Positions 6,150 through 59,883 of a stretch of DNA of 64,000 bases are shown here, in pieces; positions within the stretch are counted from its first letter, which is position 1; every line of letters starts with the position of its first letter. Position numbers and translations under genes: made by a program. A model generated the notes under the pieces. That model ran no database searches. It worked only from the letters and a program-made list of their open reading frames with translations, and was not told the origin of the DNA. The DNA is from Octopus vulgaris (taxonomy: Eukaryota). The DNA lies in assembly GCA_951406725.2 (NCBI GenBank), contig OX597821.1, positions 51,212,001-51,276,000 on the forward strand, in the 5' to 3' direction.

Positions 6150-6267
6150 TTTATAGGGAGAATTCACAAAAGAAAACAAAAGACGAAGACAAGCGGTGTA
6201 GACAAGCAACAGATGTATTAGTTTAACGGTCGGGAAGTGAAAAAGTCTTTAACGTTTCGAGCCTATA
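6150..6267 (-). mobile_element. GAGC-stem HHR-like short element, 5'-truncated copy
   Basis: Reverse complement reads ggctcgaaacgttaaagac...taatacatctg...gtcttcgtcttttg, matching 11018-11130; (TA)n on both sides. Confidence 0.7.
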
Positions 6268-9200
6268 GATATATATGTATATATACACATATATGCACTC
6301 AAACATATACGCATATATACATAAATATTCTGTGTCCTTACTTTTATATCCACATTTATATATACCCACACACACACTCACATATGAATACACACACACA
6401 GACTTATATGTATGTATGTATGTATGTATATATGTATGTATGTATGTATGTATGTATGTATGTATGTATGTATGTATGTATGTATGTATGTATGCGTGTA
6501 TGTATGTACGTATGTAGATATAGTTAAGGAAAGGTTTTATGTATATATGTATGTATGTAGGTATAATTGAGGAAACACTAAACGAACTATTGGAGTCTTT
6601 CAAGCATGTATTTCTAGTTCAGCTGCTAAATAATTTTAGATATATTTCTTCTCGTGGTAACACAGAACTTAGTACTCCAAATATTAAATTACATTTTTAT
6701 ATGGAGTTTTTATGTTCTTTGCTATTAAAACGACATGTGGTCTCCTTATAAATCGTATCATCTATTTATCTGTATTGTATCTTCTATTTATTCTTGAGCT
6801 GGTACTACCGATTTCTCGCTGATATTTCCACCCGGCAGTAACAATGACTCTTCAAATTCTTTGTCCAGAAGGGCACGACTTCGTTTATGCTGACTGTAGA
6901 TAGATTTATGTTTGTCTTGGTCAAATGTGGAGCGAAACATTGAAAAGTTTTGCGTCACTGGGATGCGAAATGATGAAAGAAGAGTTGTTTCCCATGGAAT
7001 GGCTTCAGCTACGAGCAAGCGCGTAATCTTTGTGCGCATTAAGCCGTGGCGCAGGCAACTGATCTAGGAGGTGGAGAATTCTTATATAAAAGCATGAGGA
7101 ATTTTTTTTTTATTGAGTTTAAGGCAACTTTTTCATCAGGCCTTTACTATTAGCATTTCCAGGAATGTGTGGTAGGCTCTACACAAGCGTGCCAACAGGT
7201 TTCGAGGTCTGAAGATACGCTGTAACGCTAAACGCTTTATGGACATGAAACCCACGGTATCCTATCGACCGGCCTTATCTATCCCTCTCTCTCTATGATG
7301 CCTTTTTGTTTTCTTTTTAAATTTTACGATTGTTTAATTCCTCTTTACTTTCCTTTCGCCAAAGCTTACCTTTTTTCAAGTACGGAGAGATCAATATATA
7401 TGCATACATTCACATATACATACTACCTACAATCATCTTGCACACACACACAAAACACACACATACACACGCACAAATGCTTTAGATGAGAGAATTTATT
7501 GTAGCTCATAAGACAGGGTATGTCCAAGTGATATATTTATCTATTTTACGCAGTTACATACATATTTTATCCATATTTTGACTCTGAAATTTAGGTCGAG
7601 GAAACATCATGTTCTTGTAGTTGTTGTTGTTGGTGGTAGTGATTGTGGTGGTGGTGGTGGTGGTGGTGGTTGTGGTTGTGTTCGTAGTGGTGGTGCTGAT
7701 GGTTAACCTCGGATCAAACCGAAACCTAAGATTATGATTTAATGAGTTCCACTTTTAGGTGATCCCCCCCACTCATTCTTGCAGATATCGAATATTTAGT
7801 ACTGAATTTTTCACTATTATATTCTGTTTTAAAGTTGATAGAATATTATTCGACGGAGAACGGGCTATTATTTCTCGCAACTTAGGCAACCGCATAGAAC
7901 CTCTCTCGTTGTCTGGATAATTACCATGTTTAGTATTGTACATGTTTTTCTTCTTTGGCACAGACCGTACATTGCCTTAGTACATTATGAATGAATTCAT
8001 ATATTGTTTTATGTACACGTATATTGCTTTAACGTGCGTAATAAAGTATAGTATATACATTGCTTAATATATATTGTACATACATTCATTGCCTTAGTAT
8101 GTAAAATTATTACTTTTACATCTGCCTAAATATCTATTATGTATATATGATTGCTCTGTGAGATATATATGACACATTATTTACAAACGTCATCTGTAAG
8201 GAAAAACAGTTCTGATCTTATAGAAACATCACATAGTTATGGCGAATATATCTGACTGTACAGTAATATTGTTTGTGTGTTACTAAGTGGAACATTTTAT
8301 TGCACGTCCATTTAAACCCAAAGAAGAAAAGCAGAGGAAACCCCAGAGAGAACCAACATTCCCTGTAGCTTCCTTTATAGTTTTCTTTTATTTTCTATGT
8401 TTTTGTCTTTTACTTTTTTCAGTCATTGAACTGCAACCATAATGGTATACAGCCTTGAAATAATTTAGTCGAACGAATCGATCTTCATTTTTTAAAGCGT
8501 GGTACTTATTCCATCTGGCTCTTTTGCGGGACCGCAAATTTATGGGAACATAAACGACAGCGTAACGGTTGTGAAGCAGCGGTGGGGGAGAAATGTAGAT
8601 ATAGAAATGCGCACGCGCGCACAAAATCACTCACACACACACACACACACACACACACACACACACACACACACACACACACACGCATACATACACACAA
8701 ACACACGCACACACGCACATGCACACATGTATCTGTGCATGTATATGCGATGGGTTTATTTCTGTCCGAAGACACCTGCTCAAACTGTGAAACACTGGGA
8801 AACTGAACTCGGAATCATGTGATTGGGAAGAAAACTTCTTACCACACATCCACGCATAATTCTATATTAATGATATTTCATCGTAAATTTCCTCTTGATA
8901 TACCGTATAGCCGATCCCAATGCAATTTGAAATCAGTGGTGTCAAACGCAAAACTTACACGATATAAAACACCTCGTGTCTCTTTCCTTTGTCTCATTCA
9001 GCGGTCTCCAATTATTGCCGTCATAATATGCATGTATGACGACATGCAAGTTGTATTTGATCTGTATTGATCTAGACACCTTCTTCTAACAAATATCCAC
9101 GACTGAATACTTAATTCTTCCCAAAACAGAAATATGACGCAAGTCTTCAGCGATACGTGTATGCGTTTCGTCTCTGCGCTATAGGATGGAATGGAATTGA

Positions 9201-10507
9201 TAAAACTATAATCAATCTTAATTGGATATATGATGCGCACACGCGTGTATGTGCGCGCGCATGTGTTCGTGTGTGTTTTCATGATTCATTCATATTGTAC
9301 TTCGTAAAGAAATCAAAAGTTTCTTTTATGTTTGATAAGATTATGCAGCAATACTGTTATGAAATGTAATTAGCCAAATTTGCGTGCACACCATGTTTAG
9401 ATATTTTTATGTCCATCTATTATTAGAGTGATTGCTGTCCTCTAAGAGAAGGACGAACAAACTGAGATGGAAAGAAAATAACAAGAACAAACACAAGAAC
9501 AGCTGCAACAACCAGATCAATCACAATAACGATAATATAAATAATGATGAAACCGATAATAATATTAATGATCACAATGAAGTCAACAGAAATGATAATA
9601 ATTTCATCATTAGTCTTTGCAATGACGAGCGGTATGAAGTTACTGATGGTCTCGTGATTATAGTTTAGTAATGTTTTAATTTTTCTGCAACCTATCTGAT
9701 GGAGTGATATCACTTGTCTCTTGGCTGTAGAGTGACAGTAGATGTTCTTCGGTGACACAGCGAACCATACATAAAACATAATACATACATAATAGCCTAG
9801 TACATAAAACATAATATATACATAATAGCCTAGGACGATCAAAATCCACTCTTCGCTTCATATTGATTCAGTCATAATATGTTACTCTAGCTCCTCAGGT
9901 TAATCGATACGATATGGCTGAGCTAGAAGCGGGAAGTTTGTGCACATGAGCCTTTCAAGGTTTCTGAAACTTTTGGGACAAAAAGAGTAAATTATCGTTT
10001 GAATGGATAGCTTGGTCAAATATTCGTGAGGGAGTGGACTCCGCTAAGAAAAAAATGGATGAGAAAAGGATTTTAAAAAATCGTTGATATAATAGTTTAA
10101 CCTCACTTTATACGTCAACAGTATGATGGGTTTAACCCCATCATTCTACTCAGTTTTAAGAATATGGATGTTAAGGAGCATCTATAACTAATGATTAAGA
10201 AGTCTCTATGACTAGATAACAAAGAATAAAACATATTAATGAACTAATTCTAACTTCAGAGTTCCGCATTCAAAGCAATGCGATCATATTTATTTCCACT
10301 TAAATGTGGATATTCTGTTAGCACAAATTTTAGTGTGGTAGATACTGTGAGAGAAACTCTCGTAGAGTTTTTTGTTGCAAAATGAACGCTTGCTTATATT
10401 GGTGGGGATTTATCTCCTTGCGAGCAATATAAACAACTGAGCATTTCCCACAAAAAGGCTGATCTGAGAGTTCCTCTCATTATTTCTACAGCGCTAAAGG
10501 TTCTTCA

Positions 10508-10616
10508 AGTACTAGGCTTACAAAAAATAAGTCCTGGGGTCGGTTTGCTCGACTAAAGGTGGTGCTCCAGCATGGCCACAGTCAAATGACAGAAACAAGT
10601 AAAAGAGTAAAGAGTA
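10508..10616 (+). mobile_element. SINE family B, 3' part
   Basis: agtactaggcttacaaaaaataagtcctggggtcg...ctccagcatggccacagtcaaatgacagaaacaagtaaaagag, as in 32316-32424. Confidence 0.8.
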
Positions 10617-58714: not shown

Positions 58715-59115
58715 AGGAGTGGCTGTGTGGTAAGTAGCTTGCTTACGAACTACATGGTTCCGGTTCAGTCCCACTGCGTGGCACCTTGGGCTAGTGTCTT
58801 CTAGTATAGCCTCGGGCCGACCAAAGCCTTGTGAGTGGATTTGGTAGACGGAAACTGAAAGAAGCCCGTCGTATATATGTATATATATATATATGTGTAT
58901 ATATATATATATATGTGTGTGTGTGTATTTGTGTGTCTATGTTTGTACCCCCAACAACGCTTGACAATCGATGCTGGTGTGTTTTCGTCCCCGTAACTTA
59001 GCGGTTCGGCAAAAGCGACTAGGCTTACAAAGAATAAGTCCTGGGGTCGATTTGCTCGACTAAAGGTGGTGCTCCAGCATGGCTGCAGTCAAATGACTGA
59101 AACAAGTAAAAAAAA
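58715..59115 (+). mobile_element. SINE family B, near full length
   Basis: Close match to 32016-32425 with a short internal deletion near 59017. Confidence 0.85.
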
Positions 59116-59699
59116 TACAGATATAATGTATAAATATATATACATATGGGATAGATGCGTATGAATATGTATGGAAAAGACGGTGTATGAAAGAGAGACA
59201 GAGAAAGAGAGAGAGAGAGAGAGAGAGAAAGAAGCAAAAGTAGAAACACAGATTTCAGAGAAAGACAGGCACAAGCACACATGTGTACTGAGATTCCTCG
59301 CTCATATATTGCTATATATAAGTACACATTTTCTAAATGTAACTCTGTGTCAAGGTTTTACATGATTCCCGTCACTAGTTTCAGAGATTTGTTTATGTTT
59401 AAAAATCTAAATCGTCTTTAGCCAACACTAACCTTTCAGAGCAACACCGTTCATCTTCTCTGAGATCATCTAAACATATTTCTTGACTTTGGTAAACAAA
59501 ATAAAGATTAAAGATATACATGAATATGTGAGGGTGTTCTAATTGTGTGTTCGCCTATAAGTTGCTGCCATATAGATACATACATACATACATGCACAGA
59601 CACACACACTCACACATACACACGCACGCGCACACATACACACACGCACGCACACACAAACATACACGCATACACACATATGTACATATATATGTATTT

Positions 59700-59883
59700 T
59701 ATTATCCTTATATTTCCTTCTTTCTACTCGGACTTTCCTCTTTCTTACGAAGAGCTATTCTCGAAACGTTAACAACTCTCTGCTTTCACTGACCGTCAAA
59801 TTAATATATTGCTTGTACACGTCCTCACGTTCGCTTTTTAACTCTTTTTCTCTGTTTTAAATTGTTTGTTCATTGATTTGACT
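59700..59883 (+). mobile_element. GAGC-stem HHR-like short element (old, degenerate)
   Basis: CTTACGA-A-GAGC-TAT-TCTC-GAAACGTTA at 59744-59771; tail cacgtcctcacgtt...ttgactat resembles 36980-37031. Confidence 0.55.

Follow-up and report, generated by a model that had tools for sequence, protein, structure and literature searches.

Copies in the window and their parent elements

The window studied here, a stretch of 64,000 nucleotides (nt) of the Octopus vulgaris genome (assembly GCA_951406725.2, contig OX597821.1, positions 51,212,001 to 51,276,000), contains eight copies of a short repeat with a variant minimal hammerhead ribozyme motif. Our analyses identify these repeats, almost certainly, as ends of Penelope-like elements (PLEs), namely as 5′-truncated pseudo-long terminal repeats (pseudo-LTRs) of two Neptune-type retrotransposons (Table 1). 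All eight places listed in an initial annotation of the window (seven copies and a tail) exist, and a profile search retrieved exactly eight matches there. That annotation had also correctly read the loops GTAT, GTAG, TCC and TTAC, the four CTGTNGA cores (with U instead of A at position 6), the single CCGACGA core and the TA-rich repeat that ends all eight copies, and its suggestion of solo pseudo-LTRs was right; one copy matches the pseudo-LTRs of a complete element (L130) at all but one position. The copy placed at 36804 is real but can be aligned only from about 36827–36829, and the absence of any open reading frame (ORF) holds inside the window, where tblastn returned nothing, but not genome-wide, since full elements carry an ORF for a reverse transcriptase (RT) and a GIY-YIG endonuclease.

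Table 1. Position, assignment and closest relatives of the eight window copies (C3 and U6, hammerhead positions 3 and 6; 5′ ends relative to C3)
Coordinates	Strand	Assignment	Core	Relatives and remarks
6150..6267	-	U6-lineage copy cut inside loop 2		GCTC-GAAACGT and tail remain; CUGNNGA half missing
10861..11133	+	Longer 5′-truncated pseudo-LTR, U6 lineage	CTGTGGA, C3 11003	81-83% to L007 and L269, two natural copies of greater length; RT/endonuclease remnants lie upstream in L269
36827..37030	+	Pseudo-LTR of a second, older Neptune-type family	CCGACGA (U4C), C3 36901	89-93% to both L302 pseudo-LTRs, which bracket a broken RT-GIY-YIG ORF; 5′ end at -74
37069..37280	-	Solo pseudo-LTR of a young Neptune-type element	CTGTTGA, C3 37200, U6 37197	211/212 to both L130 pseudo-LTRs; starts at the -80 hot spot, between two (TA)n stretches; cut predicted between 37173 and 37172
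38679..38739	+	Second family, 3′ tail only		Matches the 36827 copy at 92% (61 nt)
48467..48660	+	Old U6-lineage pseudo-LTR	CTGTTGA, C3 48541	Loop TTAC, one stem II wobble; clusters with the oldest U6 subfamily in the tree
54696..54882	-	5′-truncated pseudo-LTR, U6 lineage	CTGTCGA, C3 54815	82% to L130 pseudo-LTR
59737..59883	+	Degenerate, closer to the second family	CTTACGA, C3 59744	Stem I broken

Walking upstream from the longest copies led to an RT-endonuclease ORF that ends about 750 nt before the core. A 100-amino-acid RT query yielded 10,694 first-look candidates, among which 150, all 95–100% identical, were scored, and the 20 loci with the longest open frames were taken for element analysis. 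In fifteen of them a core stands at each end, at a distance of 4,380–4,573 nt, and a sixteenth differs by one core change; the 3′ core is present in 20/20, and all 35 matched cores are U6. The suspected kinship with PLEs is thus borne out by autonomous parents in the same genome, with cores that flank RT/GIY-YIG ORFs. These elements are organized as pseudo-LTR with core, 5′ untranslated region (UTR), RT and GIY-YIG ORF, C/T-rich 3′UTR, second pseudo-LTR with core and (TA)n. The median identity of their ORFs is 99.3% (190 pairs). In these loci (L127–L146) the ORF often reads about 100–150 codons into the C/T-rich 3′UTR, with a stop that varies by copy.

The L130 ORF codes for 1078 amino acids, with an RVT_1 match above cut-off (E 2.5e-7) and a GIY-YIG match below the Pfam cut-off (E 0.0065); the IIYC...YIGQT signature is present, and homologues carry PF00078 and, in many cases, PF01541. 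It contains the motifs GLRF (262), DKG (376), CISCSLC (877), EH (901) and RH (916), the latter three giving the CCHH motif of the endonuclease, and a linker, CSRPRCRTC at 836, located 38 amino acids ahead of IIYC, that by eye fits the Neptune rows and not the shorter Nematis rows of the Craig alignment. Also judged by eye, the ORF closely resembles Neptune1_Ap as aligned in the PMC8557442 supplement. Its best database relatives are 56–58% identical, and no named Neptune references occur among the 120 homologues listed. A Naiad/Chlamys identity was rejected because the GIY-YIG domain is C-terminal and not N-terminal. A TA-type repeat follows the tail in 25/30 pattern-selected copies, revealing an insertion bias towards (TA)n. 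Some PLE families have a spliceosomal intron in the pseudo-LTR or 5′UTR; here no GT-AG joint was detected in assembled contigs of four runs, a type of data that cannot show intron absence. In positions 3250–4000 of L130, runs of four coded organisms (nine studies) hold 75–85% of the sampled words, so that the young family is common either to close relatives or to the labels.

The second family is less well preserved. A broken ORF, whose main RT-endonuclease blocks are about 55–73% identical, occurs in five of its 20 junction stretches and in L268; three of these loci are flanked by a core on either side. No ORF lies between L247 and L248, which are 3.2 kb apart. A parent candidate retrieved from the top GIY-YIG matches (781 amino acids, about 28% identical, U3-A8 core) was rejected as it belongs to another Neptune-like family. 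That family (L073, L078 and others), also young, has many identical-scoring copies; its palindrome reads ACATGT, and it shares the TATATA patch, with a tail of about 30 nt in four loci.

Abundance and conservation of the variant motif

The motif resembles the known minimal hammerhead but fails its core consensus, C3 U4 G5 A6 N7 G8 A9 / G12 A13 A14, through an A6U change in the young family and its relatives (the U6 lineage) and a U4C change in the second family. In the genome searched (2.8 Gb, 227 contigs), we found 18,967 exact matches to the U6 pattern with either loop, versus 356 for A6 and 584 for C6/G6 with a 4-nt loop, and 14,422 matches to the C(T/C)GANGA pattern, 9,193 of them with C4. 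Reversed versions of both the U6 and the C(T/C)GANGA patterns gave 0 matches genome-wide. The high copy number and the A6U substitution proposed at the outset were therefore both real. Sixty arbitrary 10-kb stretches (600 kb) contained 26 profile matches, against 0 in the same stretches reversed, from which a rough extrapolation gives around 120,000 copies genome-wide, the sample being clumped, with five copies in one stretch. All U6-lineage cores in these arbitrary stretches were U6 (14/14), as were 29/30 retrieved by a tail-only search, some rows of which are places first chosen by core pattern.

Among 213 copies, stem I pairs 1–4 are paired in 90–98% and stem II in 96–100%, partly owing to the way in which members were selected. 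These copies substantiate the minimal type I layout with palindromic stem III: they have G10.1-C11.1, an extra nucleotide 9/10.1, the ACGU palindrome and H at position 17, with G17 in just 1/213. The proposed pairing of stem I stands for its first four pairs, but the fifth is mostly unpaired, with C.A in 55/99 copies. Pair 4 is C-G in 83/99 copies of the U6 family and G-C in 88/114 copies of the second one, a compensatory switch. Rfam covariance models gave no match at E<=10 on the 211-nt pseudo-LTR, and no hammerhead occurred among the Rfam matches listed for the window (150 of 409), where the matches were microsatellite artefacts.

A tree based on flanks only, with midpoint root and with its direction judged from within-group divergence (from 19% down to 3%), arranges the subfamilies as a ladder, in which the oldest U6 group has a small A6 group next to it. 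Eight groups were drawn by eye from 96 of 99 copies, after dropping three long branches; 14 A6 copies, chosen by an A6 search, were excluded from the subfamily majorities. Across the seven U6 subfamilies, 0/29 core and stem columns changed versus 50/109 flank columns (Fisher p 4e-7), and flank drift between subfamily majorities reached 38%. By contrast, position 7 changed five times and position 17 three times, without ever becoming G in any subfamily majority; the hammerhead consensus leaves precisely these two positions free (PMC7151607). The immobility of 29 columns alongside change at the free positions is our main argument that a hammerhead-like constraint outlived the A6U change. On balance, this pattern of substitutions leads us to lean towards a motif that, with A6U or U4C, would be a putative weakened self-cleaving RNA, dependent on dimers or on protein, maintained by selection and retaining catalysis. 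Some copies with a CTGAGGA core (L208, L213, L214, L224 and L226) are nested in the G7 subfamily and seem commoner than simple back-mutation; they possibly derive from a small revertant master.

Copy ends, proposed mode of copying and alternative readings

Copies have a fixed 3′ end, about 100–105 nt past the core at a templated TATATA patch, and a variable 5′ end. In 41 distinct copies, TATATAT runs on into the 5′UTR in 10 (5′ pseudo-LTRs), into genomic (TA)n in 30 (3′ ends) and into something else in one, and the same kind of patch characterizes three families, the young one, the second one and the unrelated U3-A8 one. The shortest copies reach 12 nt upstream of the core and the longest over 1.4 kb, with 7/30 extending into the ORF within 1.5 kb. 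Among 30 young-family copies selected by their tail, seven start at -74 to -86 from C3, and no 5′ end falls between -87 and -150 among the 14 longer ones. In the second family, 10/21 copies start at -75 to -84, where the sequences of the two families are unrelated. A search for TA-joined junctions covering about -59 to -89 recovered at least 37 distinct ones among the matches listed (100 of 1,141), 28 of them at -78 to -85 and 16 exactly at -80. Within the 5′ pseudo-LTR of long copies, 0/15 measurable cases stop near -80 (their ends range from -211 to -1525), an outcome that a sequence-determined RT stop, operating one time in three, would give with a probability of about 0.002.

We consider it fairly probable that transcripts start near -80. 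The size of about 200 bp would then follow from a start about 80 nt upstream of the core. In this model, the endonuclease of the element would nick (TA)n and the nicked end would pair with the UAUAUA patch and prime RT internally; where this happened in the 5′ pseudo-LTR, run-off at the transcript start would yield copies of about 200 bp in cis. Since long copies always pass -80, their template would instead be circular or tandem, or RT would have jumped between templates. L133, with different cores at its two ends, fits template switching. Among 30 junction loci of the CCGACGA family (L271–L300), we observed 15 that jump from 5′UTR to 3′ pseudo-LTR at differing breakpoints, nine that run into the ORF and six that end in (TA)n 114–140 nt beyond the TA patch, which may mark another site of RT initiation; a deletion family with shared breakpoints was sought in these loci and was not found.

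Fold predictions suggest how the A6U change might act. In four U6 copies, G5:C15.2, a pair that extends stem I into a rod, has a probability of 0.43–0.97, which falls to 0.01–0.27 with A6; two natural A6 copies give 0.04–0.11. According to the predictions, U6 pairs with A15.1 and closes the monomer into an inactive rod, so that cleavage would be slow or would need assistance and most of the copied RNA would be intact. The idea that U4C and A6U both strengthen a single off-state helix was abandoned, as P(G5:C15.2)=0 in the C4 copy. More speculatively, and with considerable doubt, the motif, which would have kept all its other hammerhead positions through the seven subfamilies, might be a naturally gated hammerhead whose A6U rod opens only when RNAs dimerise, with the protein that the element encodes or with Mn2+; infrequent cleavage followed by ligation would then provide a circular template for full-length copies, whereas uncut RNA primed at the TA patch would generate about 100,000 solo pseudo-LTRs.

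Several observations weigh against the favoured reading of a selected, weakly cleaving motif. The columns of the Fisher test are not independent, the subfamilies were drawn by eye and many members were chosen by core pattern, which favours intact cores. Catalysis alone does not call for the invariance of loop 2 and of the inserted A, which equals that of the core, and the compensatory switch in stem I is a single event. The predicted folds are no more stable than those of shuffled sequences (z -0.45 to +1.18), and cofolding never yielded an active dimer. The ACGU palindrome stays buried in other pairings in two of four A6 controls too, so that the monomer can be silenced without U6. The predicted cut site is not enriched in 5′ junctions: it accounts for six of 32 distinct ones among the matches listed (100 of 486), five of these six being explained by TA microhomology, and four to five others lie at a TA site in loop 2. 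The copied RNA thus appears to be mostly uncut. Finally, the ribozyme of the Anolis element is dispensable for insertion in vitro (PMC11167929).

The most serious alternative, although unlikely in our judgement, is that the same elements lost cleavage after A6U and kept the fold as a protein-bound RNA handle for cis-preference or for placing internal priming. It would account for the invariance of the whole block, loop 2 included, for the predicted U6 rod and for the lack of a cut-site signature in the 5′ junctions among the matches listed, and it agrees with reports that hammerhead mutants leave in vitro insertion unimpaired and that Naiads thrive without hammerheads (PMC11167929, PMC8557442). 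What speaks against it is that the sole hypervariable positions within the block are 7 and 17, those free in hammerhead chemistry, and that 17 stays A, U or C; moreover, the binding region of the Anolis protein was mapped inside the ORF (PMC11167929). Less plausible still is a dead relic or a DNA promoter element in which U6 and C4 hitch-hiked with successful masters. Master lineages do succeed one another in the ladder, so that few independent events are sampled, and PLE promoters are reported in the pseudo-LTR (PMC6765202), but 29 columns remained unchanged while flanks drifted by up to 38%, stem I changed in a compensatory way between the two families and the motif strand is fixed relative to ORF sense.

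The repeats are not a separate non-autonomous system, and the independent family postulated initially, a self-transcribed unit of about 200 bp similar to short interspersed nuclear elements (SINEs) or retrozymes and mobilised in trans, is very improbable: it could claim the defined 5′ boundary near -80 (given which solo copies might be re-transcribed), the vast excess of short over long copies in the second family (14,422 pattern matches, nearly all its own, versus 70 junction matches) and the lack of an ORF in 15/30 second-family junction loci, but autonomous parents exist in the same genome, short copies match their pseudo-LTRs and 27/30 tail-selected ones share the core, lengths form a continuous series, deletion breakpoints differ between copies and no tandem arrays of the short unit appeared in the loci examined.

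Relation to known elements and other features of the window

The element belongs to a known clade and is not an undescribed system. Minimal hammerheads in PLE pseudo-LTRs were already published by Cervera and de la Pena in 2014, who reported weak cleavage, only as dimers, and proposed a circle model (PMC4209133). As in that work, the motif occurs in both pseudo-LTRs, with the extra nucleotide 9/10.1, G10.1-C11.1, palindromic 15.2-16.2 (ACGU) and a stem I of 4–5 bp, and most copies are solo ones from truncated elements. However, the 56 representatives in its Fig. S3, collected with a descriptor that required the conserved boxes, are all U4 and A6, whereas in this genome most copies of the most successful lineages have U6 or C4, and stem II has just 4 bp. 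With the Neptune clade as presented by Craig et al. 2021 (PMC8557442), our elements share a single ORF, the GLRF, DKG and YIDD motifs, a CX4CxxC linker of Neptune length, the C-terminal GIY-YIG with CCHH, (TA)n targeting, partial tandems and heavy 5′ truncation; they differ by the unit of about 4.5 kb, the long low-complexity 3′UTR, the variant cores and the templated TA patch. Cephalopod rows in that paper are Naiads, among the matches listed (two of four places with ‘octopus’).

In Poseidon PAc of Anolis (PMC11167929), ribozyme cleavage needs protein and uncut RNA is the main template. RT likewise starts within the RNA near the junction between pseudo-LTR and ORF, but its start is not homologous to the cut DNA, whereas here it is a TATATA that matches the (TA)n target; PAc also keeps C3-G8 and belongs to another clade (PMC11167929). 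Natural core variants are documented elsewhere, such as A6C in phage Bcep176 and U4C in a viroid, both with low activity, A6C preferring Mn2+ (PMC3088659, PMC7151607), and the U3-A8 core of Schistosoma (PMC3088659, PMC7151607, PMC4209133). They affect the same core positions as here, but they are rare single cases or compensatory, and our searches revealed no A6U fixed in tens of thousands of copies. Non-LTR retrozymes, as outlined in PMC7229834 and bioRxiv 10.64898/2026.07.22.740005, are similarly short and non-coding, with a type I hammerhead, and come from PLE pseudo-LTRs; they form tandem arrays with classically canonical ribozymes, unlike the dispersed (TA)n monomers, continuous with coding elements, of this genome. 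Monomers are dispersed in both the window and the other loci, with occasional groups of two or three neighbours. A repeat annotation of octopus (PMC13282606) describes recently active Penelope families, and its main text does not contain ‘hammerhead’, ‘ribozyme’ or ‘Neptune’. Among the matches listed in literature searches there was no report of an A6U PLE hammerhead, of a cephalopod Neptune hammerhead or of TA-patch priming, although Lunse et al. 2017, Repbase or Dfam could already hold these.

Three features set these repeats apart, namely a fixed U6 that apparently remained under selection, the TA patch and the pile-up at -80. PLE hammerheads are universal in canonical PLEs, yet their activity in vitro is weak and one reconstituted assay could do without them. 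The octopus family offers a natural experiment, namely a young intact element, with copies 99.3% identical, that bears a core change expected to lower activity, while the A6 sister group and the ladder of subfamilies reveal what stayed under selection. In addition, the TA patch and the -80 pile-up predict how Neptune elements target microsatellites and how partial tandems originate. Searches based on the core consensus miss tens of thousands of such motifs, which repeat annotation may file as unclassified SINEs.

Other features occur in the same window. The exon at positions 42560–43654 (+), the first coding one of a receptor, specifies an ANF_receptor ligand-binding domain (Pfam E 2.6e-24). 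The receptor is probably a membrane guanylyl cyclase, and the later copies of the repeat may lie in the introns of its gene. At 1128–1685 (+), the 3′ end of an ORF of the long interspersed nuclear element type, with a zf-RVT domain (E 3.2e-8), lies right after a long (ATCT/GTCT)n array. A 279-nt inverted repeat, 99% complementary, occupies 13138–13416 and 15550–15828, 2.1 kb apart and with no clear ORF between; it could be the inverted ends of another retroelement or terminal inverted repeats. Outside the window, positions 713–770 of L061 hold a further minimal hammerhead, of an unrelated family; its core is the canonical CTGATGA and its stems are different.

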